Below, one piece after another: positions 43,848 to 62,764 of a stretch of DNA of 64,000 nucleotides. The DNA is taken from positions 2,091 through 66,090 of the forward strand of contig CADEGL010000006.1 of assembly GCA_902826885.1 (NCBI GenBank), written 5' to 3'. Each line of letters opens with the position of its first letter. The stretch's first letter is position 1. Below the pieces are notes generated by a model. It was not told the DNA's origin. It did not search any database and saw only the letters and a program-made list of their open reading frames with translations. This DNA is from an uncultured Alphaproteobacteria bacterium (GTDB lineage Bacteria > Pseudomonadota > Alphaproteobacteria > CADEGL01). A program made the translations under genes and the position numbers.

Positions 43848-45134
43848 ATGATCAGGCATATCAAGAAGCCCGCCAAAGCGGCGGATGCGCGCCAGACCGA
43901 AGATCGCGGCACCGAAGATACCGTGCGCGGCATCCTGACCGATGTGCGCGGGCGCGGCGACGCGGCCTTGCGCCAATATTCGGAGAAGTTCGACCGGTGG
44001 AACCCGCCCTCGTTCCGCCTGAGCGAGGCCGACATCAAAAGTTGCCTGGACGAGACGCCGGCGCGGGTGCGGGACGACATCATCTTTGCCCAAGCGCAGA
44101 TTCGCCGCTTCGCCGAGCATCAGCGCGCGGCGCTGAAGGATGTCGAGGTCGAGACCATCCCCGGCGTGATCCTGGGCCACAAGAACGTGCCGGTCGGCAA
44201 TGTGGGCTGCTATGTGCCGGGCGGGAAGTATCCGCTGGTGGCGTCCGCCCATATGGGCATCGTGACCGCCAAGGCCGCGGGCGTCGCGCGCGTGATCGCC
44301 TGCGCGCCGCCGACCGGCGGCAAGCCGCATGCGGCGACCGTGACGGCCATGCATCTGGCCGGCGCGGACGAGATCTATTGCATGGGCGGCGTACAGGCCG
44401 TGGCGGCCATGGCCTACGGCACCGAGACCATCGCGCCGGTCGACATGATCGTCGGGCCCGGCAACGCCTATGTCGCAGAGGCCAAGCGCCAGCTGTTCGG
44501 CACGGTCGGCATCGACCTGTTCGCGGGTCCGACCGAGCAGCTCGTGATCGCCGACGATTCTTGCGACGCGGAGCTGGTGGCCGCCGACATTCTGGGCCAG
44601 GCGGAGCACGGGCCGGATTCGCCGACCATCGTGGTCACCAATTCCGAGGCCCTGGCCAAGGCCACGCTGGTCGAGATCGAGCGCCAGCTCACCAAGCTCC
44701 CGACGGCCAAGATCGCCGGCGCGGCCTGGCGCGACCATGGCGAGATCATCTTGTGCGACACGGTCGACGAGATGGTGGCCGAGGGCGACCGCATCGCGTC
44801 CGAGCATGTCCAGGTGATGACGCGCGATCCCGACGTGTTCCTTAGGCGCATGACCAACTACGGCGCCTTGTTCCTGGGCAAGGAAACCAACGTCAGCTAT
44901 GGCGACAAGGTGGTGGGCACCAACCACATCCTGCCGACGCGCCGCGCGGCGCGTTACACGGGCGGGCTGTGGGTGGGCAAGTTCATCAAGACCTGCACCT
45001 ACCAACGCCTGACCGAAGCGGCCAGCGTGACCATCGGCGAATACTGCTCGCGCCTATGCGCCGTCGAAGGCTTCGCCGGTCACAAGGAGCAGGCCGATAT
45101 CCGCCTGCGCCGCTACCGCAAGGCAGCCGGGTAG
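43848..45134 (+). CDS. histidinol-dehydrogenase-family NAD-dependent dehydrogenase (not in a his context; HpsN-like possibility)
   Basis: ATG 43848 after [68 protein letters not shown] and GTNHILPT are HisD-family blocks. Confidence 0.88.
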
Positions 45135-45137: not shown

Positions 45138-46511
45138 TCAGGCGGCGCGGACCGGCGGCAGAAGCGTTTCCAGGCAGTGTTGGACGGAAGCGCGCTCCAT
45201 CTCGGCGTATAGGGCGAACTCGTCCAGCACGGACGCGCCCAACGCATCCTCGAACGCGGTCTTGTTCGGATTCGCCTGGAAGGCGCCGTTGCCATCCTGG
45301 CCGAGATTCGAGCGGAAGATGCCGGCCGCGCTGACGGGCAGGAAATCCTCGTAGACGATGGGCCGAGCCGTCGCCAAACCCGTGCGCACGAGCGCGTCGG
45401 CCGTCGCGGGGATGTTTCCCTCGCGCACCGCGCGGCCGCGGCGCCCGGTCGGGACATACTCGAAATAGGCCAAGCCTTGCTCTCGCATCGCCGTTGCGTC
45501 GTCCGGGAAGGCCGAGAAGCGCTCCGCCAAGATGCGTTGCGCCTCAAGGGCCGGCTTCCCGCGCGACAGCGTGCGCGCCTCCACCAGCAACGCGTCGTAC
45601 AGCGCACGGCCTTTTGGCGTGAGGGCCGCGCCGCGCTGTTCGATTTCGCCGAAGCGGGCCGTGTGCGTGCCGTCGATTCGCCCGCTGCCGCCCGCGAACG
45701 AGATTGGCTCGTTCAAAGCCTTGAATGACGTTTGCCGCAAAAGGATGGGCACGTCGCGGCGGGGCGGGCCCTCGATCGTTTCCTTGGGCGCCATGCCGTG
45801 TTCCGGCATCAGACGCTGGACCGTGTCGATGTCGAGCGTGCGCGGGGTCAAGTGGTTGATGTGCGGCCCCTTGAAAGAGACGATGTCGGCGATCAGGGGA
45901 TGCGCGGCGCTCAAGCGCTGGTAAAGCGCGTGCGGAACGAGGGCTTCGTCGTGCCAGCGGAACGTTTCGAGCGCTTCGCGAATGAAGGCGCTGGCATCCG
46001 CTTCGGACAGACCGCCCGCGGCCTCGGCCTTTTCCACGAGCAGGCGCGCGGCGGGCGTGAAGATCTCGCGCGCATCGAGGGTCGCGGCGACTTCGCGCCG
46101 CAGCGATTCGTCGAGCAGGTCGACGCGCAAAAGCGACGTGAACACCCGGAAGGGATTCTTCTCCAGCGCGGCGGCGTTCACCGGGCGAAAGGCGGTCGAA
46201 TGCACGGGCAGTCCCGCGGCGGAAAGGTCGTAATAGCCGACGGGATGCATGCCCATCACGGCGAAGAGGCGGCGCATGAAGCGAAGCTCGCGGGCCGTGC
46301 CGAGCCGGATCGCGCCGTGCCGCTCTTCCGTGATGCGCGCCAGCGAACCGGTCTGGCCGCCCGGCTTGCCCTGGAGGTGGCGGCCATTCACGTCCGCCAC
46401 CAGGTCGCACAGCGTGCCATAGGCCGGCACTTCCTGCCGGTACATGCGGGACATGGCGCGGGAGAAGCGGGCGCGGATATCGTCCGTGGATACGAAGCTG
46501 GGGGCGGCCAT
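45138..46511 (-). CDS. DUF1338 / HglS(YdcJ)-like 2-oxoacid dioxygenase-decarboxylase family protein
   Basis: Trimmed to MAAPSFVSTDDIRARFSRAMSRMYRQEVPAYGTLCDLVADVN, which matches the N-terminus I recall for YdcJ/HglS. An alternative start lies 18-21 nt upstream. Confidence 0.8.
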   Translation of the reverse strand: MAAPSFVSTDDIRARFSRAMSRMYRQEVPAYGTLCDLVADVNGRHLQGKPGGQTGSLARITEERHGAIRLGTARELRFMRRLFAVMGMHPVGYYDLSAAGLPVHSTAFRPVNAAALEKNPFRVFTSLLRVDLLDESLRREVAATLDAREIFTPAARLLVEKAEAAGGLSEADASAFIREALETFRWHDEALVPHALYQRLSAAHPLIADIVSFKGPHINHLTPRTLDIDTVQRLMPEHGMAPKETIEGPPRRDVPILLRQTSFKALNEPISFAGGSGRIDGTHTARFGEIEQRGAALTPKGRALYDALLVEARTLSRGKPALEAQRILAERFSAFPDDATAMREQGLAYFEYVPTGRRGRAVREGNIPATADALVRTGLATARPIVYEDFLPVSAAGIFRSNLGQDGNGAFQANPNKTAFEDALGASVLDEFALYAEMERASVQHCLETLLPPVRAA

Positions 46512-46611
46512 GCGCGCGCCTTTCATCATAAATTCATGCTCTATACAGATGTTTTCACTATATAAATCCTTTAAAAATCGATAATTTTTCATCGGTTAAT
46601 GAGGTTATGTA

Positions 46612-49984: not shown

Positions 49985-50872
49985 ATGGCCCGTGGAAGAC
50001 CACGCCTGAACCCCTTGCCGCCCGCGGTGCAGGAGCCTGGCCGTCCCGGTTCACCGCTGTCGGCCGTGGTGTGGAATTACGATGGCGAACGCTTGGCCGA
50101 GGAGAGCGACCAACGCCTGTTCAACAATTCCATCGAGAAAGGGATGCGGGTTCTCCATGCGTTCGGCGTCGAGCGGCGTTCGCTCAACGTGGCGGAGATC
50201 GCACGAGCATCGGGGCTCGATCGCAGCTCGACCCAGCGCGTGGTTTACACGCTGCATCGCCTTGGCTACCTGCGGAAGGACGAGGTCACACGGCGCTATC
50301 GCCCGTCGTCGCGCGTGCTCGATTTCGGCAGTGCCTATCTGGCGGCTGACGAGCCTGCCTCGCGCCTGCCGCGTTATTTCTCACTGATACACCGGCGCAC
50401 CGGCGAGTTTGTCTCGCTCAACGAGTTGGACGGCACGGAGGTCGTGGTGATCACGCGGCTGCCGAGCCGCCGCCTGTTCAGCATCAATGTCCAGCCCGGC
50501 ATGCGCTTTCCGGCGTTTTGCACGGCGACCGGCCGGGCGATACTGGGCTTTCTTCCGCTTGACGCCGCGCGCGCGGTCCTCGCGCGTTCGAAGCGCAAGC
50601 CACTGACCGGACACACGGTGACCGATCTGGCCGGGATCGAACGCGCGCTGCAACGCGTGCGCGAAACGGGTTATTGCATCACAGAGCAGGAAGCCGTGGC
50701 CGGCACGACGGCATTGGGAGTGCCGATTTTCGGCGCCGGCGGACATCCCGTGGCCGCGATCGAATTCTATCTGCCGCTGGCGGAATGGCCGCGCGAACGC
50801 ATCGCGCGAGAGTTGGCGCCGCCGGCGTTGGAGGCGGGACGCGAGATGTCGCGCAGCCTGGGCGCGCGCTAG
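49985..50872 (+). CDS. IclR-family transcriptional regulator
   Basis: Trimmed to MARGRPRLNPLPP. NSIEKGMRVLHAFGVERRSLNVAEIARASGLDRSSTQRVVYTLHRLGYL is the HTH, followed by an effector domain. Confidence 0.88.
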   Translation: MARGRPRLNPLPPAVQEPGRPGSPLSAVVWNYDGERLAEESDQRLFNNSIEKGMRVLHAFGVERRSLNVAEIARASGLDRSSTQRVVYTLHRLGYLRKDEVTRRYRPSSRVLDFGSAYLAADEPASRLPRYFSLIHRRTGEFVSLNELDGTEVVVITRLPSRRLFSINVQPGMRFPAFCTATGRAILGFLPLDAARAVLARSKRKPLTGHTVTDLAGIERALQRVRETGYCITEQEAVAGTTALGVPIFGAGGHPVAAIEFYLPLAEWPRERIARELAPPALEAGREMSRSLGAR

Positions 50873-52494
50873 GGAATCTCGATCTCGAAGCGGAAGATCG
50901 CTTTCTCGAAATCGTTCACCAGCACGTCGACGCGGACCTGCCATGTGCCGGGATAGGGCATGGGCACGAAGGCGAACTGGTAGCGGCCGCCCGCGATGGC
51001 TTCCGCCGTGCGCGGAAACGCCTCGATGCCCTGGTCGCCCTTGGTGATCGCCGCCGTGACCTCGGAAGATTTGATGGGATTGCCTTTGGCGTCGTGAACC
51101 ATCAGTTCGAGCGTGTTCAGTCCCGCGTGGCCCGGCGTCACGGCCAGATTGGCTTTATAGACGCCGCTGACGGCTTCGGCGGCGATGCCCGCGCCTTCCG
51201 GCGTCAGATGGTGATGTTCATGCGCGGCCGGCGCACCGCCCGCGCGCGGGGGCGTCGCGAAACCGAGGCCCGCCGTCACGCCGAGGATTAGAAACGCCAA
51301 CGCCAACTCCATCCGGATCGTGCGGCGAAACATCGCCAAAGCGCGGTCACGGTCCGTCTGCAAGCGGCCGAGCAGGCGTTGGCGATTGTATGCGGCCAGG
51401 GCCGCCAAGCCGGCGACGAGGACCAGCTTGGCCAACAGCATGCGGCCGTAATCGGTGGCCGTCAGCCCGGCGACCTCCCGAACCTGGAGAAAGGCGACGA
51501 TGAGGCCCGACAAGGCGAGCAATGCCACGTTGGGCACCGCGAATGTCGAGAACCGCGATAGCGCGCGGGGCGCGTCCTGCGGCGCGGCGGCGATGATGCG
51601 GAGGAGGGGCCACAGCGCACCGATCCAGAACGAGACGGTCAGCGCGTGAAGGCCGAGCGAAGAATTGGCCAGCCATGCCGGGTCCGCGCCGCCGACATGC
51701 CCCGTGGCCGTGAGGCTGGCCGCGGTGATCGCGGCGCCCATGATGGCGGTGACTTGAAAGAACGGCCGTGCAATCCGCCGGATCGAGAGGGCGATCAGCA
51801 CCGCGCCGCCGATGGCGATGGCGGCCGCGGGCGCAAGGCTGCTCTCGCCGCCCACCTGCCAGGGCCGGGGCGTGAAAAACTCGCCGAGCGGCGTGAGGGC
51901 CAGGAGCGCGCCGTGAACGCCGACGTCGAGGGCGGCCGTGAATGCGACCAAGGCCGCGGAAGCGGCGACATAGCGCCGGAGCCAGCGCGACGCGCCGCCC
52001 GCGACGAAGACCGCGAACAAGGCACCGCCGCACGCGGCAATCAGCGCCGCGAAGTTGAGCGTGCGCAGGGCCCAGTCGGCGGTCCGCCAAATGCCCTCCA
52101 GGGCCTGCGTCTCCGGCGCCATGGGCGGCTGCTCGGTGGCGTAGCCCAGCGAGAAATAAAGCGACCCGGCGACGGGATGGGAATCCCCCGAACGCACGCG
52201 ATAGGTGACGAGATAGGTGCCCTCGGGCATCTCCGCCGGCAGGTTGATGCGCATTTCCGAATCGCGCACGCGCACGTTGCGCATCTCGGCGATGACCGCG
52301 CCGGTGCCATCCAGCACACGCACGTCCACCGGCACGACGGTCTCGTTGAAACTCAGCACGACGGCGTCGATCGGGTCCTTGAGAACCGCGCCGTCCTTGG
52401 GATCGCTGCCCAAAAGCAGGGCGTGGGCGCGCGCTGGATCGGGCGCGAACGCCAGAACGGTGAGCAACAGCGCAAGGATCGTCAGTCGTTTCAT
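50869..52494 (-). CDS. CopC-CopD fusion copper-transport protein (YcnJ-like) with extra C-terminal periplasmic domain
   Basis: Signal peptide ending ARA, then a predicted mature N-terminal His (HALLLGSDP). The CopC beta-sandwich (YRVRSGDSHPVAGSLYFSLG) is followed by about 8 TM helices (CopD-like) and a C-terminal beta domain. Confidence 0.85.
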   Translation of the reverse strand: MKRLTILALLLTVLAFAPDPARAHALLLGSDPKDGAVLKDPIDAVVLSFNETVVPVDVRVLDGTGAVIAEMRNVRVRDSEMRINLPAEMPEGTYLVTYRVRSGDSHPVAGSLYFSLGYATEQPPMAPETQALEGIWRTADWALRTLNFAALIAACGGALFAVFVAGGASRWLRRYVAASAALVAFTAALDVGVHGALLALTPLGEFFTPRPWQVGGESSLAPAAAIAIGGAVLIALSIRRIARPFFQVTAIMGAAITAASLTATGHVGGADPAWLANSSLGLHALTVSFWIGALWPLLRIIAAAPQDAPRALSRFSTFAVPNVALLALSGLIVAFLQVREVAGLTATDYGRMLLAKLVLVAGLAALAAYNRQRLLGRLQTDRDRALAMFRRTIRMELALAFLILGVTAGLGFATPPRAGGAPAAHEHHHLTPEGAGIAAEAVSGVYKANLAVTPGHAGLNTLELMVHDAKGNPIKSSEVTAAITKGDQGIEAFPRTAEAIAGGRYQFAFVPMPYPGTWQVRVDVLVNDFEKAIFRFEIEIP

Positions 52495-52552: not shown

Positions 52553-53074
52553 TCAGGATTTCGGCAGCAGTTTCACCTGCGGCACGGGATGGGCATAGTC
52601 CTCCATGCTCTTGCCCGCTTCCGGCACTTCGATCCAGCGCGCGAAGCCCTTCTTGCATTCCTGCACGGTGGGAAAGTTGAGCGTCTCGCCCGGACGGTCC
52701 GGCAGCTTCATGCGCATGGCGAACTCGTCGTAGTACTCGTCGGGCAACTGGCCGGTCCAAATCACCTCCTTGACGCCTTCGGTGATCTGGCCGCCATGGC
52801 CATCGGGGACCGGCTGGGCCAGCTTGCCCTTCACGATCTCCAGCTTCCAGCCCGCCTTCGGCTGCGGCTTCACGCCGGTGACGCCGTCGGGGATCTGGAT
52901 GCGGACCTTGAGCGTCGGCGAACCGTCGCAGCCGTGCGGAACGCGCATGACCAGCTTGTAATAGCTGTCGGCCGGTGCCTGTTTGGTTTCGATGGTGGCG
53001 TGGGCGAAGGCCGTGCCGGCGAATCCCAGCAAGCCGAGCACGGCCGCGGCCGCGCGCAAACGTGAGCGTGTCAT
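52553..53074 (-). CDS. YcnI-family (DUF1775) periplasmic copper-binding protein
   Basis: Leader ...GTAFA, then a predicted mature N-terminal His (HATIETKQAP). MRVPHGCDGSPT and WTG blocks are typical of YcnI. Confidence 0.8.
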   Translation of the reverse strand: MTRSRLRAAAAVLGLLGFAGTAFAHATIETKQAPADSYYKLVMRVPHGCDGSPTLKVRIQIPDGVTGVKPQPKAGWKLEIVKGKLAQPVPDGHGGQITEGVKEVIWTGQLPDEYYDEFAMRMKLPDRPGETLNFPTVQECKKGFARWIEVPEAGKSMEDYAHPVPQVKLLPKS

Positions 53075-53132: not shown

Positions 53133-53531
53133 TCAGCCGGTGACCGGCGGTGCGCGGGCCTGGAGCGGGCTGGCAAATCGCTCGGCCGCCGTGCCGGACG
53201 CGGCCGTTTCGAACACGACGCCCGCGATCTCGGGCGCCTGGAACACATACGCGATGGGAACAAGGGCAGGGCCGCCAAGTTGCAGCGCCTGACAGATCGG
53301 GCACTGCATCGGCCGGTCATGGCCGGGCTTCGCGGGTTCGGGCGCATCCTGCTCCGCGGCGGCATGGTCGCCACGGGAGCCGTGCGCGGAGTGGCCGGAG
53401 CCATCCATCGCATGCGTGGCCGCCGGCACGGAGGTCGCGGCGAAGCCAGGTGGCCGGTGCGCCATCGGCACGGCCATGTGCAGCAGCAGGCCGAAGACGG
53501 CCAGCCATCGCGCCATGGCCGCGAAACGCAT
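53133..53531 (-). CDS. DUF2946-type CxxC protein (copy 1)
   Basis: Last 132 codons of the spurious ORF 53133..54068. MRFAAMARWLAVFGLLLHMAVP is the leader or anchor, followed by a His-rich stretch, CPICQ, and C-terminal PLQARAPPVTG. Confidence 0.65.
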   Translation of the reverse strand: MRFAAMARWLAVFGLLLHMAVPMAHRPPGFAATSVPAATHAMDGSGHSAHGSRGDHAAAEQDAPEPAKPGHDRPMQCPICQALQLGGPALVPIAYVFQAPEIAGVVFETAASGTAAERFASPLQARAPPVTG

Positions 53532-53542: not shown

Positions 53543-54139
53543 TCACCCGAGCAGTTTGCGGATGCGCGCGGCCATGTCGGCCGGCGGCGTGTTGGGCGTG
53601 AAATGGGTCATGAACCGGCCTTGCGGGTCCATCAGATAGAGGATGCCCGTGTGGTCCATGGTGTAGTCGTCGCCCTGCGGCACTTTCTTGTAGTAGACGC
53701 GGTAGGCCTTGGCGGCTTGGGCGACCTGTTCCGGCGTTCCGGTCAGCGCGACGATGCGCGGGTCGAAATTGGCCACGTATTGAGACATCGCCTCGACCGT
53801 GTCGCGCTCGGGGTCGACCGTGATGAAGATGGGCTGGATCTTGTCGGCCGAGGCCCCCAATTCGGTCAGCACCGCCGACATGTCGTTCAAGGCCGTGGGG
53901 CAAACGTCCGGGCAATGGGTGAAACCGAAAAACACCAGCATCCACCGGCCGCGGAACGCTTCGTCCGTGACCGTGCGGCCCTTTTGATCCACCAAGGTGA
54001 AGGGGCCGCCGACCGAGGCCGTGCCGGACGACGTGACTTGCGGCGTGGGCACGTTGAAGAAGGTCCACAAGGCGGCGCCGGCGGCAATGATGGCCAGGGC
54101 CGCCGCGACGATCGCGACGCGGATGAACGGGCGGGGCAT
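53543..54139 (-). CDS. SCO1/SenC-family copper chaperone / thiol-disulfide oxidoreductase
   Basis: Trimmed to MPRPFIRVAIVAAALAIIAAGAAL (membrane anchor). FFGFTHCPDVCP is the CxxxC motif, and the distal His lies in TMDHTGILYL. Confidence 0.9.
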   Translation of the reverse strand: MPRPFIRVAIVAAALAIIAAGAALWTFFNVPTPQVTSSGTASVGGPFTLVDQKGRTVTDEAFRGRWMLVFFGFTHCPDVCPTALNDMSAVLTELGASADKIQPIFITVDPERDTVEAMSQYVANFDPRIVALTGTPEQVAQAAKAYRVYYKKVPQGDDYTMDHTGILYLMDPQGRFMTHFTPNTPPADMAARIRKLLG

Positions 54140-54140
54140 G

Positions 54141-55046
54141 TCAGGCGCTCTCCTTGCGCGTCTCTGTCTTATTCGCGCGGTTCGATCGCGGCATGAAGAA
54201 AAGCGCGACCTTGACCAAGCGCGGCACCAGCTTCGGCCGCGGCAGGCTTGCATCGTAGCGTGCCATGCGCCGGTCGTTTTCGGTCAGGCAAATTTCCAGC
54301 AGCTCGCGCGGGTTGATGTCCGCGCCTAGCTCCTCATGACCTTTGGCGGTGAAATTGTTGCCGCCGCCGACGTCCTTCGCCGTGCCCAGGCGGTCGCGCG
54401 CGATATCGAAGAAGATGCGGACACACCAAGTCAGAAAGATCACGCGGCGCAACGGCGAAAGATTGCGCAGATGCCATTTCACCCAATTGTTGAAGAAGAG
54501 AATGTGGCGGCATTCCTCCTGAATGACCGGCTCGAAAGTGTCCACCAGCACCGGCGGGAAGAAACCCGACCGCTTGGCCAGCGCGAACAAGCCGAAGGCG
54601 AAGAAGCTGTCGACGCATTCGCCGAAACCGGTGCGCATGAACCCTTGCTCGGGTCCGTTCCAGCGCTGATAAGGCGGCTCGGGTTCCAGTTTGATGCCGT
54701 AGAACGAAACCATGTGGTGCAGCACGTCCTTGTGCCGCTGCTCCTCGAAGCCGTTGAGGGCGATGGCTTCCTTGACCAAGGGATCGGCCAAGGTCTCGGC
54801 GTAATACTTCATCCGCAGGGCGGCCTTGCCCTCCGTCTGAACCGCAAGGTCCCAAATCGGCAGGGAAGTCAGGCGCTTGAACGCGTCGGGTTCGAGTTCG
54901 GGCCAGGCGATGATCGCCGGCTTGTAGGGGTCGAATGTGTCGAGGAACATCCGGCAGAAGGCCTGCTTGTGCGCCTCCGAACCAAGGCGGAGAGGGGGCG
55001 CCGTTCGCATCGCGGCATTGGCGTTCATATGATTTTGAGCGCTCAT
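54141..55046 (-). CDS. ferritin-like four-helix-bundle protein with diiron-carboxylate motif, family unassigned (paralog 1)
   Basis: No signal peptide. Candidate ligands are E in AVQTEGKA, ExxH in FEEQRH, E in FGECVD, and ExxH in IQEECRH. The stop is 1 nt before the SCO start. Confidence 0.75.
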   Translation of the reverse strand: MSAQNHMNANAAMRTAPPLRLGSEAHKQAFCRMFLDTFDPYKPAIIAWPELEPDAFKRLTSLPIWDLAVQTEGKAALRMKYYAETLADPLVKEAIALNGFEEQRHKDVLHHMVSFYGIKLEPEPPYQRWNGPEQGFMRTGFGECVDSFFAFGLFALAKRSGFFPPVLVDTFEPVIQEECRHILFFNNWVKWHLRNLSPLRRVIFLTWCVRIFFDIARDRLGTAKDVGGGNNFTAKGHEELGADINPRELLEICLTENDRRMARYDASLPRPKLVPRLVKVALFFMPRSNRANKTETRKESA

Positions 55047-55088
55047 CGTGTCTCCAACACGCGTCCTTCGAGCTCACGGAGCATTGAT

Positions 55089-55105
55089 TTTATCTCCGAG
55101 ATAAA
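55089..55105. promoter_or_regulatory. perfect 8-1-8 palindrome in AT-rich promoter island
   Basis: TTTATCTC-C-GAGATAAA lies 43 nt upstream of the diiron paralog 1 start, inside the 179-bp gap (55047-55225), which contains a strongly AT-rich stretch (about 55081-55140). Confidence 0.35.
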
Positions 55106-55225
55106 CTCGATAAGATATTGATAATATTTTATTAATGTCTTCCCGATTGCCCCCGGCGCGGTTCCACGGCTGCGCCTGTGCCGTTCGATAACATTGTTTA
55201 GCGCTGACGTGAATGCCATTGGGGG

Positions 55226-56119
55226 TTATGCGGTCTTGCTGGCCGTGACGGGTTTGCCCCAGTTGCCCGGCCATACGTTAAGGACGGTCAGAGCGCCGCG
55301 GGCCAGGCCCGGCATGAGCGACGGACGAAGCAGGCGCGGATCGAAAGCCCCCATCCGTCGCGCGTTCTCGCTGAGACATTCGCTCAGAAAGGCGCGGGCG
55401 TTGAAGCCGCCGGGAAAGATATCGGCCTGGGTCGCGGAGAACTTGGCCCGGTCCCGCTCCTCGGCCGAGACTTCCGTCTTGTTCTTCTGTCCATCGCGAA
55501 TGTCCTGAACGTGACGCGCGACCGCGCGGCCGTGGAACCACAGCGAGTGGAGCGCGCGCAAGGGGGCCGCGCCGCGGCCGCGTTGGGCCTGGCGATAAGC
55601 CACCCAGTTCACGAAGAACACGATGTGACGCACTTCCTCCTCGAGCAGGGTCGCGAGGATGGCGAACAGGGAATCGGGCAGGAACTGCGCGCGTTTTCCG
55701 AAACTGTAGGCGCCGAAGCCCAGAAACGAATCCACGCACTCGCCGAAGCCGAAATCGAGGAAACCGGTCTCGATGTCCGCGGGAAGCTTGGAAATCGGCC
55801 GGTCGGATGCGGGGATGCCGTAGAGGTCGATCATGTGGCGGATCAGATCGGCGTGCCGCGCTTCCTCGAAGCCCTGAAGATCGATGGCTTCTCGCACCAG
55901 CGGATCTTGGATGGTCTCGGCATAGGCCCGGACCATCGCGCCCGCGCGGCGTTCGGCGAAAAACACCTCGTCCCAGAACGGCACCGAACGCAGCCGCGCC
56001 AAGCTGGCGTCGTCCAGCTCGGGCCAGGGCAGCTCGGTGACGATGTAGGGATTGTGCGCCTCCATGAAGCTTCGGCAGAAAAGCTCCTTATGCGCGTCGG
56101 TTCCGATCTTCATTCGCAT
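55226..56119 (-). CDS. ferritin-like protein with diiron-carboxylate motif, family unassigned (paralog 2)
   Basis: Last 297 codons of the spurious ORF 55226..56845 (ATG 56119 after AAGGA; alternatives 56146 and 56113). Candidate ligands are E in FFAERRAG, FEEARH, FGECVD and LEEEVRH. Collinear with paralog 1. Confidence 0.75.
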   Translation of the reverse strand: MRMKIGTDAHKELFCRSFMEAHNPYIVTELPWPELDDASLARLRSVPFWDEVFFAERRAGAMVRAYAETIQDPLVREAIDLQGFEEARHADLIRHMIDLYGIPASDRPISKLPADIETGFLDFGFGECVDSFLGFGAYSFGKRAQFLPDSLFAILATLLEEEVRHIVFFVNWVAYRQAQRGRGAAPLRALHSLWFHGRAVARHVQDIRDGQKNKTEVSAEERDRAKFSATQADIFPGGFNARAFLSECLSENARRMGAFDPRLLRPSLMPGLARGALTVLNVWPGNWGKPVTASKTA

Positions 56120-56157: not shown

Positions 56158-56610
56158 TCAGTGCCCGTGTCCCGCGGGCTTGTCGACCGAAGCCGAAACG
56201 GATTTCGCGCCGGCCTTTTCGAAGGTGAGGGTCAGGGGAACCGTGTCGCCCGGTTTGAGGCCGCCTTGCACCTCCATCAGCATGATGTGCAAGCCGCCAG
56301 GCTTCAGCTCGACGGTCTCGCCGGGTTTCAGCGTGAGTCCGTCCACCGGCCGCATCTTCATCACGCCATTGTCGTTGGTGACGGAATGGAGCTCGGCCTT
56401 GCCCGCGACGGGGGTGGATACCGCCACCAGCCTGTCGGGGGCCTTGCCGGCGTTCGTGATCAGCAGATAGGCCGCGCCCACCTTCGCGCCGGGCATGATC
56501 CGGGCGTGGGCGTCCTGAAGCGTGATGTTCGCGTCCGCTGCGTAAGCGGCCGGACAGATAATGGTGAGGAAAGCGGCGGCGACAGCCGCACGCACTGACA
56601 GCGTACCCAT
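56158..56610 (-). CDS. periplasmic copper chaperone PCu(A)C
   Basis: Signal peptide, then H-x10-M-x21-H-x-M: AELHSVTNDNGVMKM ... GGLHIMLM. The C-terminus is GHGH. Confidence 0.88.
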   Translation of the reverse strand: MGTLSVRAAVAAAFLTIICPAAYAADANITLQDAHARIMPGAKVGAAYLLITNAGKAPDRLVAVSTPVAGKAELHSVTNDNGVMKMRPVDGLTLKPGETVELKPGGLHIMLMEVQGGLKPGDTVPLTLTFEKAGAKSVSASVDKPAGHGH

Positions 56611-56670: not shown

Positions 56671-57090
56671 TCAGGCCGTCAGGGGAGGTGCGCGGGCTTG
56701 GAGCGGATCGAGATGGTGACGGGCTGGCGCGGCTTGGCCCGGCGCGCGCGCATTGGGCTCGGACTCGTAGGCCGGTCCCAGGAGATTGACGGCCGATGCC
56801 GGTACGGCGTTGCCGAGGTTTTGCCAAACCTGGCAGAGCGGGCACTTGGGCGTCCGTGCGGTGTCCGCATCGTTATGCGATGGGCCGGTGTCTGACATCT
56901 TCGTCAGACCGTGGGCGGTGCAGAGCGCGAGATCGCCCGCGAAGGGCAGGGCGGTGCCTTCGGCCGATGCGGGCTGGTTCAGAAGCGGCAGGACCGTCTG
57001 AAGAAGCAGCGCGAAGGACGCGAGCCAGACGCCGAACAGCGACACGCGCGCGGCTTTTCTGAACGTCGATCGCGAGACTCGTGGGCGCAT
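56671..57090 (-). CDS. DUF2946-type CxxC protein (copy 2)
   Basis: Anchor LFGVWLASFALLLQTVLPLL, CPLCQ, and C-terminal PLQARAPPLTA, which is nearly identical to the copy 1 tail. Confidence 0.65.
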   Translation of the reverse strand: MRPRVSRSTFRKAARVSLFGVWLASFALLLQTVLPLLNQPASAEGTALPFAGDLALCTAHGLTKMSDTGPSHNDADTARTPKCPLCQVWQNLGNAVPASAVNLLGPAYESEPNARAPGQAAPARHHLDPLQARAPPLTA

Positions 57091-57204
57091 TCGTCCACCG
57101 GTTGAAGGAGGCGCAATCTAACGCTAGGGCCGGTGCCTGACAATTGACCAATCGCGTGCCGGGCACCAGGCTATGCCGAGAAAATTTTAACCGGAGCCTT
57201 AAGT

Positions 57205-57666
57205 ATGTTTCGCCATTTTGCCGTTCTGGCCGTGTTTTTGCCGTTCGTGCTTCCTAGCGCGGTTCTTGCCCACAGTTTCACGCACGGCGATATCCGGGTC
57301 ATGCACCCTTGGGCCGCCGTCGCGGCGGCGGGCAAATCGAGCCCCGTTTACATGACGCTGACCAACAGCGGCATCGAGCCCGACAGGCTGGTCGCGGTCG
57401 AGGCCAAGGCGGCGGGGCGCGTCGAAATCCAGAAGGCCAAGAAAGGGAGCGGCGCGACGTCCTATGAGACCATCGCCGCCGTGGAGTTGGGCGCCAAGAA
57501 GACCGTCGCGATGCAGCCGGGCGGCCTGCGCATCCTGCTGATCGATCTGAAGGAGCCGCTGCGCCACGAATATACGCTGCCCATGACGTTGGTGTTCGAG
57601 CGCGCGGGGCGGGTCGAAATCCAGGCCGTGATTCAGAAATCCGCCGCGGAAGGCCATACGCATTAG
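57205..57666 (+). CDS. PCu(A)C-like periplasmic protein lacking the canonical Cu(I) ligands
   Basis: Same length and block structure as PCuAC (YMTLTNSGIEPDRLVAV, QPGGL..L, LTLVFERAG). However, the H/M ligand positions read VEIQKAKKGSGATSYETI and GGLRILLI. Confidence 0.7.
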   Translation: MFRHFAVLAVFLPFVLPSAVLAHSFTHGDIRVMHPWAAVAAAGKSSPVYMTLTNSGIEPDRLVAVEAKAAGRVEIQKAKKGSGATSYETIAAVELGAKKTVAMQPGGLRILLIDLKEPLRHEYTLPMTLVFERAGRVEIQAVIQKSAAEGHTH

Positions 57667-57738: not shown

Positions 57739-58161
57739 ATGTCCGATACCGTTTCGACGTTGAAGCTCACCCATGCCGGCGCGCTGAAGATGCTGGCCGC
57801 CGCCGTGAAGAAGTCCGAGGACATGGGCGTGCCCCAGTGCATCGCCATCGTCGACGAGAGCGCCAACCTGCTGGCTTTCTCGCGCATGGACGGCGCCAAG
57901 GTCCTGTCCATCGAGACCGCGACCGCGAAGGCGCGCACCGCTGCCTCGTCCAAGGGCCCGACGGGCAAGACGCCGCCGCACGCCGAGAACCTGATGGGTC
58001 TGGCCACCGGCGGCCGTTTCACCAATCTGAAGGGCGGCCTGCCCGTGATCGTCGACGGCAAATGCGTCGGCGGCATCGGTGTCGGTTCGGGCACCGGCGA
58101 CCAGGACGTGGAAGTCGCCAACGCGGCGCTCGCGGCTGTTAAGGGCGCGCAGACGTTCTAA
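57739..58161 (+). CDS. GlcG/HbpS-family (DUF336) protein
   Basis: AIVDESANLLAFSRMDGA...SIETATAKARTAA...GGLPVIVDGKCVGGIGVGSGTGDQD is the GlcG signature. Confidence 0.85.
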   Translation: MSDTVSTLKLTHAGALKMLAAAVKKSEDMGVPQCIAIVDESANLLAFSRMDGAKVLSIETATAKARTAASSKGPTGKTPPHAENLMGLATGGRFTNLKGGLPVIVDGKCVGGIGVGSGTGDQDVEVANAALAAVKGAQTF

Positions 58162-58230: not shown

Positions 58231-59532
58231 ATGCCGTTAGGGGCGAAGACGACTCGTTACCGACGTCTTGGAAGCCTCCTGCGACACCGCTGGCGGCGGC
58301 AGTTCGTGTTCCTGATGGGCGGTGTGGTTACCGCCTTGGTGGCTATCGCCTTCACCATCGCGGCCGACCACGTCCATGCGGCGAATCAATTCATCCGCGC
58401 CCAGTGGCCCTATGCGCCCCTGATCCTGTGCCCGGTCGGCTTCGGGCTCCTTGTTTTCCTAGCCAACCGCTATTTTCCGAATTCGCAAGGCAGCGGCATT
58501 CCACAGGCCATTGCCGCGCGGCATCTGGACGATCCGTCGGCGCGGGAAAAGCTGATCGGCTTGCGCGTGGCGATCGGCAAGATCTTCCTCACTCTTGGCG
58601 GCCTTCTCTGCGGTGCGTCGATCGGGCGCGAAGGTCCGACCGTGCAAGTCGGCGCGGCGGTGATGTTCACCGTCGGGCGCATGTCGCCGCTGCGTCAGCG
58701 CGGCTTGATCGTGGCAGGCGCGGGCGCGGGCATTGCGGCGGCCTTCAACGCGCCCTTGGCCGGAATCATTTTCGCCATCGAGGAGCTGAGCCGTTCGTTC
58801 GATACCAAGACCAGCCGCCTGGTGATCGCGGCCGTGCTGGTCGCGGGCCTGATCTCGGTCATGATCCTCGGAAATTACAGCTACTTCGGAAAGAGCGACG
58901 CTACGCTGCATGGCATCGACGCCTGGATCGTCGTGCCGGTGTGCGGCGTGCTGGGGGGCCTGGCCGGCGGGCTGTTCAGCCGCCTTCTGGTCGTCATCAC
59001 GCGCGGCATCCATGGACGGATCGGCCGTTGGTACAAGCGCAATCCGATCCGCTTCGCGGTGTTGTGCGGGCTGGCTTTCGCGGTCATCGGCTTTCTTTCG
59101 CAGGGTTCCGTCTATGGCACGGGCTATGACCAGGCGCGCGCCCTTCTCGAAGGCAACGAAGGGGCGGGCTGGAGTTTCGGCTTGCTGAAGTTCGGCGCCA
59201 CGCTGCTGTCGTCCGTCAGCGGCTTGCCCGGCGGTCTGTTTTCGCCGTCGCTGGCGGCGGGCGCGGGTTTCGGCATGAACATCGCGTCGATGTTCAGTCC
59301 CGAGCTGTTCAAGGCCGTGGTGCTGGTGGGGATGGTGGCCTACTTCACGGGCGTCGTGCAGGCGCCGATCACGGCATTCGTCATCGTGACGGAGATGACG
59401 CAGAACTACGGCATGCTGGTGCCCCTGATGGGCGCGGCGTTGATCGCCTATGTCTGCTCGCGGCTGGTGTGCCCGAAGAGCGTCTATCACGCGCTCGCGG
59501 AAAATTACCTCACACCGCCATCGCCGCGCTGA
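58231..59532 (+). CDS. ClC-family chloride/proton channel-transporter
   Basis: Selectivity motifs GSGIPQ, GREGPTVQ and GGLFSPSL, with about 10 TM helices. Confidence 0.9.
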   Translation: MPLGAKTTRYRRLGSLLRHRWRRQFVFLMGGVVTALVAIAFTIAADHVHAANQFIRAQWPYAPLILCPVGFGLLVFLANRYFPNSQGSGIPQAIAARHLDDPSAREKLIGLRVAIGKIFLTLGGLLCGASIGREGPTVQVGAAVMFTVGRMSPLRQRGLIVAGAGAGIAAAFNAPLAGIIFAIEELSRSFDTKTSRLVIAAVLVAGLISVMILGNYSYFGKSDATLHGIDAWIVVPVCGVLGGLAGGLFSRLLVVITRGIHGRIGRWYKRNPIRFAVLCGLAFAVIGFLSQGSVYGTGYDQARALLEGNEGAGWSFGLLKFGATLLSSVSGLPGGLFSPSLAAGAGFGMNIASMFSPELFKAVVLVGMVAYFTGVVQAPITAFVIVTEMTQNYGMLVPLMGAALIAYVCSRLVCPKSVYHALAENYLTPPSPR

Positions 59533-59568: not shown

Positions 59569-59997
59569 TCAGTTCGCCTTCTTCTGCAACTCGTCCTTGG
59601 TGATCTTGCCGTCCTTGTTTTTGTCGGCGGCGTCGAACTTCTTGGCGTAGTAGTCGAGATATTCCTGCTTGGTGACCGTGCCGTCCTTGTTCACGTCCAT
59701 CTCGTCGAACACGGTGTTGGGCTTGCCCTTGTTTTTCGTGGGCATCTCGTCGGCCGTGATCTTGCCGTCCTTGTTCTTGTCCATCGCGTCGAATTTCTTC
59801 GCGTAACTGTCGAGATACTCCTGCTTCGAAACCGCGCCGTCCTTGTTCGTGTCCATGCCGTTGAACAGCATGTTCGGCGGAATGACGGGCGGGGGGCCTC
59901 CGGGCGCCACCATTTGGGCGCTCGCGCCGCTGGCGCCGGCCAACATGGCGGCAGCGAACGCAACCGAAAGAAGGCGGCGGGATTTCGGGTTCGTCAT
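59569..59997 (-). CDS. periplasmic EF-hand calcium-binding protein (4 loops)
   Basis: Signal peptide ...GASGASA. Four EF-hand loops: DTNKDGAVSKQE, DKNKDGKITADE, DVNKDGTVTKQE and DKNKDGKITKDE. Confidence 0.85.
   Translation of the reverse strand: MTNPKSRRLLSVAFAAAMLAGASGASAQMVAPGGPPPVIPPNMLFNGMDTNKDGAVSKQEYLDSYAKKFDAMDKNKDGKITADEMPTKNKGKPNTVFDEMDVNKDGTVTKQEYLDYYAKKFDAADKNKDGKITKDELQKKAN
59602..59856 (-). repeat. intragenic tandem duplication of an EF-hand pair (156-nt period)
   Basis: 99-nt blocks at 59602-59700 and 59758-59856 align without gaps at roughly 80 percent identity by eye. The offset is 156 nt, or 52 codons. Confidence 0.6.
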
Positions 59998-60022: not shown

Positions 60023-60493
60023 TCACTGGCCGCCGAGGGCTTCGCTCTTGCTCAGCGATCCGTCCTTGTTCAGATCGTGCTGTTGGTACCATTCGGCGGA
60101 GTGGATCTGGAATTCCTGTTGGGTGACCACGCCATCGCCATTCTTATCCATGGCTTGAAAAGTCTTCTTGGCTTGCGGCGTGTCCGGCATCTCGTCCGGT
60201 GTGATCTGGCCGTCGCCGTTCTTGTCGAACTGCTTGAACGCCTGGGATGTCGCGCCGTCATATTCGTTCTGGGTCAGCACGCCATCGCCGTCGGCATCGT
60301 GGTTGTCGAATGCCTGGGCGTTCGTTTGGGTCGTGTTCTCGTCGACCGGCATAAATAGATAGGATGGGGCGATGGGGTCCGACATCAAGCCCTGTGCCTT
60401 TGGCGCGTCTGTCGAGAACGCCAAGGCGAGGCCGGAAAAAAACACGGCAAGGCACGGGCGCGAGAACTGCACGGAAGGATCCCCCATTCGCAT
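60023..60493 (-). CDS. periplasmic EF-hand calcium-binding protein (4 loops, divergent)
   Basis: Leader CLAVFFSGLALAFS. Four loops: DADGDGVLTQNE, DKNGDGQITPDE, DKNGDGVVTQQE and DLNKDGSLSKSE. Confidence 0.8.
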   Translation of the reverse strand: MRMGDPSVQFSRPCLAVFFSGLALAFSTDAPKAQGLMSDPIAPSYLFMPVDENTTQTNAQAFDNHDADGDGVLTQNEYDGATSQAFKQFDKNGDGQITPDEMPDTPQAKKTFQAMDKNGDGVVTQQEFQIHSAEWYQQHDLNKDGSLSKSEALGGQ

Positions 60494-60655
60494 TCAATAC
60501 TGCGTGATGGTACGCCGGGGTTGGGGCGAAAAGCGAAGCTTTTTCAGCGGTATGCGGCTGGTCCTTGCCGGGGGATGGAAGCGGCTTTTCCCGCCGTTTG
60601 CCTTGATTTCGTCACGTTTGGCCGCACATATGAGCGGCAGACCATAGTCGGGGTG

Positions 60656-62764
60656 ATGCGCGTGCGCCGTCTCTTCTTATTACTTCTTCTGGCGCCGATC
60701 TTTGCCGTGCTCGCATCCGCTGGCGCGTCGGCCAACCCCGTTCAGCGCGACCATGTGCGCGTCACGCTCATTTCCGAGGTCGAATCCGTACGGCCGGGCG
60801 ACACGTTCTGGGTCGCGTTGCGCCAAGAGATCAAGCCGGATTGGCACACCTATTGGATCAATCCCGGTGATTCGGGCATTCCCACGGCCATCGCCTGGAC
60901 GCTGCCGCCGGGCGCCGAAGCAGGCCCGATTGTCTGGCCCGCGCCGATTCGGTTTCCGCTCGGCCACTTGGTCAACTTCGGTTATGCCGGTGAAGCGTGG
61001 CTGCTGACGGAGATCACGGTGCCGGTGACCGCGGCGCCGGGCGCCAGCTTCGACGTGACGGCCCAAGCCAATTGGCTTGCGTGCGCGCAGATCTGCGTGC
61101 CGGAAGAGGCGTCACTCACGATTAACGTTCCGCTCGCCACCGAGACTCGCGCCGATCCCGATGCCGCGGTGGGGTTTGCCACGGCGCGCGCCGCCTTGCC
61201 GCGGCCCGCGCCGTGGCCCGCGTCCTATGCCGCGACGAAAGACGGCTTCCGCCTCGCGTTGGCCATGCCGAAGGAAATGGCGGCCGCCGTGTCCGATTCC
61301 TTCGTCTTCCCCGAACAGCTCGATGTGATCGAAAACGGCGCCGCGCAGAAGAGGCGCGCGACGGCGGACGGGCTTGTCGTCGATCTACAGCGCGGCGTGC
61401 TGGGCCTGAAGCAAGGTGAGAAGCTGACCGGCGTCGTCGAGCTGACCGAAGGGAAGGGCGCCGGCGGCCAAGTTCATCATTTCGCCTTCGCGGCCGGTCC
61501 CGCGCCGGCTGGCGCATTGGTCGGCACGAGCGAGGGCGATGTCGGCGGGGGTTTGCCCGTCGCGCTTCTGCTGGCTTTCGCTGGCGGCCTTATCCTCAAT
61601 CTGATGCCGTGCGTGTTCCCGATCCTATCCATGAAGGCCGCAGGGCTGGTTCGTCTGGCGGACGGGGAACGCCGCGTGGCGCGCACGCATGGACTGATCT
61701 TCGGTGCCGGCGTCATCCTGTCCTTCGCCGTGTTGGCGGGCGTCTTGATCACGCTGCGCGCGGGCGGCGCGGCGGTCGGCTGGGGCTTCCAGCTTCAGAC
61801 GCCGTGGTTCGTCCTGTTCTTGTCCTACCTGATGTTCGCGCTCGGACTGAGCCTCTCCGGCTTCTTGCGGATTGGTGGCGGTTTCGCGGGCGCGGGCGGC
61901 GCGCTGGCTTCGAAACCCGGCAAGGCCGGTGCGTTTTTCACCGGCGTGCTGGCCGTGCTGGTGGCCACCCCATGCACGGCGCCGTTCATGGGCGCGGCGC
62001 TCGGTTTCGCGCTGGCGCAACCGGCGCTGCCCGCGCTCGCCGTATTCCTGGCGCTCGGCGCCGGTATGGCGGCGCCGTATGTCTTGCTCAGTCTCTCGCC
62101 CGCGCTGCTGCGCCGCCTGCCGAAGCCGGGGCCTTGGATGGAGCGTTTCCGGCAGCTTCTCGCTTTCCCGATGTACGCGACCGCCGCGTGGCTCGTCTGG
62201 GTGTTGGCCCAGCAAAGCCCGGTGAGCGGTATCGCGCTGGCGCTCGGGGGTTTCATCCTGATCGGCTTCGCGGTCTGGCTGGTGCGCCAGATGGATGGCA
62301 GCCGTCAGGCATGGCGCACGGTATATGCCGCGCTGGCCGCCGTGGCATTCGGCGGCGCGTTGTCGACATTGCATTTCGTGGAAGCATCGGCGGCGCCGGC
62401 GCCCGCCGGCCGCGCGGCGGCCGTGGCGGACGCCGAACCGTGGAGCGCGGTTCGGGTGGAAGCCCTGCGCGCCGAGGGACGGCCGGTTCTCGTGAACTTC
62501 ACGGCGGCGTGGTGCATCACCTGTCTTGTGAACGAAAAGGCGGCCTTGAGCACAACCGCCGTGAAAAATGCCCTGAAATCGAAGAACGTCGCCTATCTCA
62601 AGGGCGATTGGACGCGCCAAGATCCGGCGATCACGGCGGCCTTGGCGGCGTTCGGACGCAGCGGTGTTCCCCTTTACGTGCTTTATCCTCCGGGCGGCGA
62701 GCCGATCGTCTTGCCGCAAATCTTGACCGAAGGTGGCGTGCTCGAAGAGCTGAACCGGATCTGA
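60656..62764 (+). CDS. DsbD-superfamily membrane thiol:disulfide reductase, ScsB-like
   Basis: Trimmed to MRVRRLFLLLLLAPIFAV. The N-terminal periplasmic domain has WLACAQICVPE. The TM core has the redox Cys LMPCVFP and TPCTAPF. The C-terminal thioredoxin domain has FTAAWCITCLVNE. Confidence 0.88.
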   Translation: MRVRRLFLLLLLAPIFAVLASAGASANPVQRDHVRVTLISEVESVRPGDTFWVALRQEIKPDWHTYWINPGDSGIPTAIAWTLPPGAEAGPIVWPAPIRFPLGHLVNFGYAGEAWLLTEITVPVTAAPGASFDVTAQANWLACAQICVPEEASLTINVPLATETRADPDAAVGFATARAALPRPAPWPASYAATKDGFRLALAMPKEMAAAVSDSFVFPEQLDVIENGAAQKRRATADGLVVDLQRGVLGLKQGEKLTGVVELTEGKGAGGQVHHFAFAAGPAPAGALVGTSEGDVGGGLPVALLLAFAGGLILNLMPCVFPILSMKAAGLVRLADGERRVARTHGLIFGAGVILSFAVLAGVLITLRAGGAAVGWGFQLQTPWFVLFLSYLMFALGLSLSGFLRIGGGFAGAGGALASKPGKAGAFFTGVLAVLVATPCTAPFMGAALGFALAQPALPALAVFLALGAGMAAPYVLLSLSPALLRRLPKPGPWMERFRQLLAFPMYATAAWLVWVLAQQSPVSGIALALGGFILIGFAVWLVRQMDGSRQAWRTVYAALAAVAFGGALSTLHFVEASAAPAPAGRAAAVADAEPWSAVRVEALRAEGRPVLVNFTAAWCITCLVNEKAALSTTAVKNALKSKNVAYLKGDWTRQDPAITAALAAFGRSGVPLYVLYPPGGEPIVLPQILTEGGVLEELNRI

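Follow-up and report, generated by a model that had tools for sequence, protein, structure and literature searches.

A paired family of ferritin-fold dimetal-carboxylate proteins found beside copper genes and in hopanoid gene clusters

R2lox (structures 4XB9, 4HR0 and 3EE4), a dimeric protein that binds a long-chain lipid ligand, and the class Ib ribonucleotide reductase (RNR) subunit R2F (1R2F) are the best structural matches of two tandem paralogous genes in a 64,000-nucleotide (nt) stretch of DNA from an uncultured alphaproteobacterium (contig CADEGL010000006.1). We refer to the whole stretch as the window, to paralog 1 (54141..55046, minus strand; 301 amino acids, aa) as A and to paralog 2 (55226..56119, minus strand; 297 aa) as B. 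We propose, with moderate confidence, that A and B form an O2-using dimetal oxidase whose substrate is a membrane lipid (probably an extended hopanoid) and whose synthesis is switched on when copper is low. Like R2lox and R2F, the two proteins are approximately 290-300 aa long and carry an E/ExxH/E/ExxH pattern on two helix hairpins. Unlike R2lox and R2F, to which they show no significant sequence similarity, they lack the radical tyrosine, have a doubled EExRH motif and an invariant cysteine beside the third ligand, contain an N-terminal GSxxHKxxFCR block and a C-terminal CLxENxRR block, and occur as a paralog pair.

Two further enzyme groups invite comparison. Fox and colleagues are said to have described, in 1994, two (D/E)ExRH motifs as the hallmark of the desaturase/hydroxylase class II diiron-oxo proteins. 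Both A (FEEQRH and QEECRH) and B (FEEARH and EEEVRH) show this doubled motif and, as in the acyl-(acyl carrier protein) (ACP) desaturases and the hydroxylases of multicomponent mono-oxygenases, a carboxylate lies some 30-35 residues upstream of each EExRH. A and B are, however, shorter than these enzymes, with 76 residues between the motifs instead of approximately 86-100, and no ACP, ferredoxin or reductase partner is conserved near them, save for a flavin mononucleotide (FMN) reductase in Burkholderia. The stearoyl-ACP desaturases 1AFR and 2UW1 are among the fold matches of B, at TM-scores of 0.36-0.38 only. By analogy with the acyl-ACP desaturases, the chemistry expected of A and B would be an O2-dependent desaturation or hydroxylation of a hydrophobic substrate. 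The N-oxygenases AurF and CmlI (PF11583) share the ferritin fold, and AurF (2JCD) and VlmB (8WVR) are among the fold matches, but the TM-score to AurF is only 0.34. The AurF-type site has a third histidine ligand four residues before the second ExxH; the corresponding residue is V174 in A and leucine in B, an absence already remarked on in an initial annotation of this DNA. With this histidine replaced, A and B are not of the AurF type.

The genes around A and B also have described counterparts. As in the CruR operon of Bordetella (bp2923-bfrG-bp2921; Roy et al., PMC9426467) and the pcuABCDE-type operons of Bradyrhizobium, a DUF2946 leader open reading frame (ORF) comes first and is followed by genes of the PCuAC, SCO, YcnI and CopCD types. 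Roy et al. showed that the DUF2946 protein Bp2923, or CruR, is the leader ORF of a Bordetella copper-acquisition operon: the ribosome stalls at a C-terminal RAPP motif, and without copper this stalling keeps the operon transcribed, while with copper the CxxC motif of the nascent chain senses the metal, stalling is relieved and Rho-dependent termination ensues. The hallmarks of the family are a CxxC motif and, approximately 45 residues away from it, a RAPP motif with three residues left before the C-terminus (PMC9426467). In the part of the survey consulted, copper proteins, MbnPH-like proteins and AhpC_TSA are listed as the products of genes downstream of cruR, and a ferritin-like family is not; as the A/B family has no Pfam model, a domain-based census of cruR operons would not see it. 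The hpn clusters offer a third comparison: where A/B genes occur in such a cluster HpnL almost always follows them, yet hpnA-hpnT, the genes that bear hpn names, do not include them.

Compared by BLASTP, A and B align collinearly over 275 residues with 38% identity (E = 6e-65). The four motifs read AVQTE72GKA, FE101E102QR104H105, FGE143C144VD and IQE177E178CR180H181 in A, and FFAE56RRAG, FE85E86AR88H89, FGE127CVD and LEE161E162VR164H165 in B, giving E72, E102, H105, E143, E178 and H181 as candidate ligands in A and E56, E86, H89, E127, E162 and H165 in B. Conservation was assessed in 113 full-length domains (82 A-type and 31 B-type) extracted from 82 loci. The six candidate ligands are invariant in all 113, and so the complete E/ExxH/E/ExxH signature that the initial annotation had read in two tandem paralogs extends across the set. 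The additional glutamate and arginine of each motif are equally invariant, such that both motifs read EExRH, and C144, D146, W48, P49, W65, N187, W188 and R260 (A numbering) do not vary either. C253 and E256 are conserved except in one B-type sequence with a gap, and H26 except in two of the 82 A-type sequences, where it is replaced. The first carboxylate of each hairpin precedes its ExxH by 30 and 35 residues, respectively. The shared N-terminal block was found as originally reported (A, HKQAFCRMF; B, HKELFCRSF); both proteins also have the C-terminal block, but A reads EICLTENDRRM there and not ECLTEN, while B reads ECLSENARRM. Neither N-terminus resembles a signal peptide, and neither protein contains a membrane helix, the top 19-residue Kyte-Doolittle means being 1.26 (A) and 1.37 (B), which agrees with the earlier description of both as lacking such features.

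AlphaFold2 models built from family alignments scored a pLDDT of 87.0 and a pTM of 0.86 for A, and 91.0 and 0.88 for B. Both models are all-helical with two ligand-bearing helix hairpins; in A the helices span residues 65-85 (E72), 89-115 (E102/H105), 132-160 (E143) and 165-194 (E178/H181), an arrangement that, with the ligand spacing, fits the canonical R2-type layout. The models were compared with the PDB by Foldseek, and among the top 50 matches listed for each model nearly all are R2 proteins, R2lox, AurF/VlmB, aldehyde-deformylating oxygenase or acyl-ACP desaturases, which bears out the ferritin-like pattern (R2, desaturase or AurF type) suggested by the initial annotation. RNR R2 proteins of classes Ib, Ia, Ic and Ie were matched, and the lowest E value, 2.4e-3, was to R2F (1R2F); R2lox reached a TM-score of up to 0.54 for A, and the highest TM-score overall was 0.55, between B and the R2 subunit 6ZJK. 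As neither model had a listed match at E ≤ 1e-3, no solved structure is close to A or B.

Profile searches gave a similar picture. A matches the Pfam family AurF at 15.8 bits, against a gathering cut-off of 29.6, and over one helix only; B has no Pfam match, and neither protein matches NCBIfam. Searches of PDB sequences by phmmer and hmmsearch, with single sequences and with a 38-sequence profile, returned nothing significant, the best profile matches being the MiaE-like 5UX1 and 2FZF at E of approximately 0.6. A Pfam scan of 38 family members yielded sub-threshold matches to the ferritin clan only (AurF in 12, Rubrerythrin in 10, Ferritin_2 in two and DUF455 in one), and the AurF matches lay over the fourth ligand helix with E = 0.005-0.008 (best among the 38 members, 0.0052). 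The same members gave no match to FA_desaturase_2 or MMO, and none to the alternative oxidase (AOX) family PF01786 even at E = 1; no AOX structure was among the top 50 Foldseek matches, and Ribonuc_red_sm (PF00268) was not matched at E up to 1. Aligned by hhalign with Escherichia coli NrdF, the family profile gave a probability of 0.9%, with the first ExxH in register and the first carboxylate out of register. The models thus support A and B as ferritin-fold, R2-like dimetal-carboxylate proteins. The initial annotation could not place them in a characterized family and, judged by the Pfam, NCBIfam and PDB profile searches, they belong to an uncharacterized one, new and unmodelled within a known superfamily.

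The family is large: a search of a collection of 5.8 billion proteins found more than 7,655 relatives among 8,000 candidates scored, and when 50%-identity representatives were searched exhaustively with a profile, at least 1,213 clusters passed E ≤ 1e-3, with 829 of them passing E ≤ 1e-10 and 299 passing E ≤ 1e-30. Neighbour-joining divides the 113 domains into two deep clades, A and B, with one window gene in each, and on this tree A and B are an ancient paralog pair. Synteny was analysed in 81 loci, 80 from species-representative genomes plus a Vineibacter locus (L081), and neighbourhoods were clustered with a filter on third-codon-position GC content (GC3) against the antisense shadow ORFs of high-GC DNA. 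The usual order is A then B, with a B-type gene following an A-type gene in 32 of the 81 loci; the window departs from this in having B ahead of A. Eight loci (L013, L015, L017, L021, L029, L032, L040 and L080) carry A and B fused as one ORF of approximately 598 aa (for example, L080:7640-9436), and partial A-B fusions are present in the protein database (P0009 and P0283). The pairing and these eight fusions make a heterodimer likely, which is also the natural expectation given that R2-type proteins are dimeric. Because both clades keep all candidate ligands, both subunits are probably catalytically competent. B is dispensable in many lineages: L082, an 80%-identical relative, keeps the same copper operon with A only, and many hpn clusters likewise contain A only.

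The main association of the family is with hopanoid genes. In 45 of the 81 loci the gene after A or A-B is HpnL-like and encodes an LPG_synthase_TM protein, and seven HpnL examples that we tested, from copper-type and unrelated contexts among others, scored 256-289 bits against the TIGR03476 cut-off of 195.65. Approximately 30 of the 81 loci fall within hopanoid clusters; in 24-27 loci the order is hpnI-hpnJ-hpnK-A-(B)-hpnL-hpnA-hpnB-hpnC-hpnD-hpnE(-shc), and Rhizomicrobium and Steroidobacteraceae are represented among these, along with further Alpha- and Gammaproteobacteria. The isolate Vineibacter terrae has A at the head of an A-hpnL-hpnA-hpnB-hpnC-hpnD-hpnE series with consecutive 4 nt overlaps, except that hpnL and hpnA share 1 nt; a protein search with the Vineibacter homolog brought up metagenome proteins almost exclusively. 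By gene order, the A/B family is an integral, translationally coupled member of many alpha- and gammaproteobacterial hpn clusters, and from this tight synteny an extended hopanoid emerges as the best candidate substrate. Neither the HpnL/hopanoid synteny nor the sometimes-fused A/B pair was part of the initial annotation; both are new. The enzymes that make bacteriohopane (BH)-pentol and -hexol and the delta-6 and delta-11 unsaturated hopanoids are unidentified, as is the function of HpnL (PMC12583986; bioRxiv 10.1101/2025.07.29.667474). The A/B family is not mentioned in either of these hopanoid surveys of 2025-26, and without a domain model it would be invisible to domain-based synteny surveys; our literature searches for the family found nothing.

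A second association, with copper genes, is the one seen in the window. Approximately 16 loci, the window included, link A/B genes to SCO, PCuAC, CopC, CopD or YcnI; PCuAC lies within 6 kb in 13 of the 81 loci and SCO in seven. The window, L001 and L082 all have A inside the order DUF2946-PCuAC-(B)-A-SCO, which continues as DUF2946-YcnI-CopCD in the window and L082; this continuation was not detected in L001. L005, L009, L010 and L011 have the order SCO-PCuAC-A(-B-HpnL), with a 4 nt overlap of PCuAC and A in L005 and L010, and in L010 a CruR ORF heads the series (CruR-SCO-PCuAC-A-B-HpnL). L032 reads CruR-(SCO/PCuAC)-A-B fusion-HpnL. L034 and L075 show A-(B)-(HpnL)-x-CopC-CopD, followed by PCuAC in L034, and L052 has the same downstream gene families. 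The copper-gene association hence recurs in at least three different gene arrangements, and in two copper-type loci, L005 and L009, a squalene-synthase-family gene lies beside SCO-PCuAC-A. Two details of these loci deserve mention in their own right. The 423 aa ORF between the CruR ORF and the A-B fusion of L032 appears to join SCO and PCuAC. A secreted protein of approximately 330-415 aa is encoded between HpnL and CopC-CopD (L034:9142-10128, L052:8914-10149 and L075:5164-6417); it is conserved, has no Pfam match, contains ...AHGFAGDRFFPATL... at its N-terminus and may be an unrecognized component of copper operons.

The regulatory prediction rests on the two DUF2946 ORFs of the window. The first heads PCuAC-B-A-SCO and the second YcnI-CopCD; CxxC and RAPP are 46 residues apart in the first (CPLC) and 45 in the second (CPIC), with three residues after RAPP in both. 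ORFs of this kind, with CxxC, 38-52 intervening residues and a terminal RAPP, head the operons in L010, L032, L076, L001, L082 and the window; in all they were found within the retrieved DNA of eight of 84 family loci, and a similarity search with the window DUF2946 matched two of 81. The spacers that follow the window leader ORFs are approximately 60 nt, compared with 162 nt in the Bordetella operon (PMC9426467). Given the CruR features of both DUF2946 ORFs, we predict that copper represses the array, which would be expressed when the metal is low and silent when it is high.

These observations are consistent with a model in which A and B are the two subunit types of a soluble or membrane-peripheral R2-like enzyme, located in the cytoplasm or at the inner membrane face. 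Each subunit would bind a dinuclear metal-carboxylate site of four glutamates and two histidines, occupied by Fe2 or Mn/Fe. By analogy with acyl-ACP desaturases, R2lox, aldehyde-deformylating oxygenase and the hydroxylases with a doubled (D/E)ExRH motif, the reduced site would activate O2 and drive a two-electron oxidation, such as a hydroxylation, a desaturation or some related reaction, on a hydrophobic substrate. The substrate would be an extended hopanoid (a bacteriohopanepolyol, BHP, or its glucosamine or cyclitol-ether derivative) or another membrane lipid handled by HpnL. CruR-type leader ORFs would ensure that the pair is made when copper is scarce and shut off when it is plentiful. 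The heterodimer, the metal identity, the O2 chemistry, the lipid or hopanoid substrate and the copper-repressed expression are thus features that we infer. The link to copper may reflect a membrane remodelling that, when copper is limiting, is co-regulated with oxidase assembly; other possible reasons for it are a role in sparing copper, a metabolite related to copper or an unusual metal requirement. A more specific version of the model, which we put forward tentatively and consider rather improbable, is that A/B is the missing O2-dependent hopanoid-tailoring oxygenase (the pentol/hexol side-chain hydroxylase or the delta-6/delta-11 ring desaturase), that it works with HpnL, and that in several lineages, this one included, its expression is wired to copper status through CruR.

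Several observations weigh against a hopanoid-oxidizing A/B enzyme. The 64 kb window contains no HpnL, shc or other hpn gene, and the hopanoid link of its A and B is accordingly one of family and not of local context. Window A and B are long-branch members of their clades, and A branches close to the base of its clade, together with loci whose neighbours are unrelated; given this divergence, the window proteins may act on another substrate than the enzymes of the hpn clusters. Many members of the family are orphans or lie beside unrelated genes, such as rnpA-yidD-yidC on the opposite strand or, in others, a CoA-transferase gene. The Hypericibacter copy is an orphan, as are the A-type homologs of Burkholderia (L039, L061 and L064), each of which is preceded by a NIPSNAP gene and a gene for an NADPH-dependent FMN reductase that could be the electron donor for the dimetal site. 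Rhizomicrobium palustre made only two BHP types, with 0% unsaturated and 1% pentol/hexol, and metagenome-assembled genomes of Rhizomicrobium carry A-B inside hpn clusters. The invariant cysteine beside ligand E143 and the conserved C253 are unusual for diiron oxygenases, and the 81 synteny loci are not phylogenetically independent. In the three Burkholderia loci we also observed a GNAT-like gene divergently upstream, assigned by eye from sequence.

Two of the alternatives keep an oxygen-activating enzyme and change what it acts on. In one, which we consider improbable, A/B is a copper-sparing substitute: an oxidase dependent on iron that would take the place of a copper enzyme when copper is low, either as an AOX-like quinol:O2 oxidoreductase that bypasses heme-copper oxidases or as the soluble diiron counterpart of a copper mono-oxygenase. 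The copper switch between the soluble and particulate methane mono-oxygenases exemplifies such an exchange, and AOX, too, uses an E/ExxH/E/ExxH motif on a four-helix bundle. In several lineages the A/B genes share an operon with PCuAC and SCO, which are assembly factors of cytochrome oxidase, and these operons are headed by CruR and predicted to be repressed by copper, as a substitute of this sort would lead one to expect; AOX is reported to be induced by copper starvation in Candida (PMC5198983). The searches that found no AOX among Pfam or fold matches speak against this explanation, as does the lack of a quinone-related or electron-transfer partner conserved beside the genes, and it leaves the dominant synteny with HpnL and hpnI/J/K/A/B unexplained. 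The other alternative, slightly less probable again, is a small-molecule N-oxygenase or oxidase that makes a chalkophore, or that oxidizes the free amine of bacteriohopanetetrol (BHT)-glucosamine or cyclitol ether, with HpnL as flippase or exporter. AurF-type proteins are the main recurring weak Pfam similarity, VlmB and AurF are among the fold matches, in the hpn clusters A comes immediately after hpnK, whose product is the deacetylase exposing the amine, and a copper-starvation context would suit a copper-acquisition metabolite; diiron N-oxygenases do serve copper-binding natural products such as fragin and fluopsin C. The AurF match is nevertheless well under its cut-off and confined to one helix, the third histidine of the AurF-type site is replaced, no non-ribosomal peptide synthetase, peptide precursor or other biosynthetic gene recurs beside the pair, and we know of no N-oxidized hopanoid that has been described.

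The three remaining explanations are all very unlikely. If the dinuclear site, or a Cys144/Cys253 site, held copper, A/B could be a Cu or Cu/Fe enzyme or a cytoplasmic copper-handling protein, which would explain why the genes travel with a CopCD/YcnI importer and copper chaperones in several arrangements. The invariant cysteine beside E143 and the conserved C253 would suit such a role, and CopCD imports copper to the cytoplasm, the predicted residence of A and B. Four carboxylates and two histidines are, however, a hard-ligand Fe or Mn site and atypical for copper, the periplasm is where SCO and PCuAC act, copper genes are missing from the vicinity of most family members (those in hpn clusters and the orphans), and to our knowledge there is no native copper-dependent ferritin-fold enzyme. 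A non-enzymatic role like that of ferritins (iron storage or ferroxidase, or a defence against peroxide of the rubrerythrin kind) or a role as RNR R2 subunit is a shade less probable still. It could draw on the sub-threshold Rubrerythrin and Ferritin_2 matches and on the R2 proteins that head the fold matches, but a length of 300 aa is R2-like and does not correspond to the 24-mer ferritin architecture, and the neighbours are lipid and copper genes and not iron or peroxide genes. The radical-position tyrosine is replaced by leucine (H105+4), no R1 gene (nrdA or nrdE) was found among the ORFs scanned around the pair (approximately 42-64 kb of the window), and these points, with the NrdF alignment and the lack of a Ribonuc_red_sm match, led us to reject an RNR R2 assignment. 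The least probable explanation is that A/B modifies the neighbouring DUF2946 peptides in the manner of ribosomally synthesized and post-translationally modified peptides, an idea that the initial annotation had raised by naming these peptides as possible substrates. Two CxxC-bearing DUF2946 ORFs do lie in the same cluster. Both carry all the hallmarks of CruR leader ORFs, though, such ORFs are rare beside the family (the eight of 84 and two of 81 loci given above), and CruR is exported while A and B lack signal peptides; the two ORFs are thus best regarded as putative CruR-type regulatory leaders and are unlikely to be substrates, and the suggestion was not borne out. On architecture, motifs, synteny and the CruR evidence we rejected the RNR R2 subunit, the iron-storage ferritin and the DUF2946-modifying enzyme as candidates.

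If a copper-repressed, hopanoid-oxidizing A/B enzyme is the correct interpretation, it would tie the remodelling of membrane hopanoids to a shortage of copper, a connection not known before. Hopanoids rank among the major lipids of bacterial membranes and are in wide use as geological biomarkers, and if A/B is the hopanoid-tailoring enzyme, its O2 requirement would affect the reading of the corresponding biomarkers. The position of A/B directly before hpnL in hopanoid operons provides a concrete, testable candidate for an unassigned step, while the repeated capture of the genes into CruR/PCuAC/SCO/CopCD operons could mean either that copper and lipids are linked in their regulation or that the metal requirement is unusual. 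For annotation, both genes may be labelled as the A/B pair of an R2-like dimetal oxidase family, for which a Pfam or NCBIfam model is missing, and the DUF2946 ORFs as regulatory leaders.

The array itself is compact and lies entirely on the minus strand, in the order DUF2946, PCu(A)C, B, A, SCO1/SenC, DUF2946, YcnI/DUF1775, CopC-CopD-YtkA. A sigma-70-like match, TTGTCA-17-TAGATT (57115..57143, minus strand), is a possible operon promoter; it lies approximately 25 nt upstream of the first DUF2946 ORF, is a match to the consensus only, and was one of two sites found by a scan in which shuffled sequences gave 1.0. The first CruR-type leader ORF (56671..57090, minus strand) encodes 139 aa (Pfam DUF2946, E = 1.3e-9), with CPLC at residue 83 and RAPP at 133, and precedes the gene for the 150 aa periplasmic copper chaperone PCu(A)C (56158..56610, minus strand; PF04314, E = 8.4e-40). 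B follows, assigned by its AlphaFold2 model, Foldseek matches and place in the B clade, with further in-frame ATGs at 56146 and 56113. A 179 nt AT-rich spacer (55047..55225, minus strand) separates B from A and contains, at 55083-55111 and approximately 37 nt upstream of the A start, a near-perfect palindrome with 14 nt arms and the core TTATCTC-G-GAGATAA (ATTGATTTTATCTC-G-GAGATAAACTCGAT), which may be an internal promoter or operator for A. In L001 the equivalent position is taken by an AT-rich inverted repeat of different sequence, and the spacer is missing from L082, a locus without B. A, assigned on the same kinds of evidence as B together with its conservation, has a GGAG 7-10 nt ahead of its ATG.

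The stop codon of A (TGA, 54143-54141) is followed by a C at 54140 and the ATG of the SCO gene at 54139-54137, which is the 1 nt spacing that the initial annotation had noted; a tight SCO junction recurs in L082, L005 and L010. The SCO gene (53543..54139, minus strand) encodes a 198 aa SCO1/SenC copper chaperone/thiol-disulfide oxidoreductase with an N-terminal membrane anchor (PF02630, E = 2.3e-58). The second CruR-type leader ORF (53133..53531, minus strand; 132 aa from MRFAAM; DUF2946, E = 1.9e-6; CPIC and RAPP) starts 11 nt past the SCO stop. It is followed by genes for a 173 aa YcnI-like DUF1775 periplasmic copper-binding protein (52553..53074, minus strand; PF07987, E = 1.7e-50) and a 541 aa CopC-CopD-YtkA fusion of the YcnJ/PcuD importer type (50869..52494, minus strand; CopC, E = 1.2e-19; CopD, 6.7e-24; YtkA, 5.3e-8), whose NCBIfam CopD and CopC matches fall under the equivalog cut-off. 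A terminator scan gave no excess over shuffled sequences. Only one metatranscriptome, the freshwater run X24, contains short contigs identical to 54143-54299, at the 3′ end of A, and to 51756-51966, in part of CopCD; these are slight evidence of transcription in nature, too thin to inform on regulation. The source, an uncultured alphaproteobacterium, has been seen in wastewater, bioreactor and landfill metagenomes.

Beyond the array, a second PCuAC paralog (57205-57666, plus strand), 36% identical to the first, is divergently oriented, with genes for an HbpS-like/GlcG protein (57739-58161, plus strand) and a CLC chloride channel (58231-59532, plus strand) downstream; L082 and L001 have these three genes next to the operon as well. 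Genes for two small, secreted, calcium-binding EF-hand proteins lie at 59569-59997 and 60023-60493 (minus strand), adjoining a gene for the thiol:disulfide interchange protein DsbD (60521-62764, plus strand), and the EF-hand genes are kept beside the copper operon in L082. At some distance, a 491 aa ORF (42051-43526, plus strand) has no Pfam match at E ≤ 1e-5; directly downstream of it lies a histidinol-dehydrogenase-family gene (43530-45134) with an N-terminal extension of approximately 120 aa, and a 2-oxoadipate dioxygenase/decarboxylase (HGLS) gene is located nearby (45138-46592).

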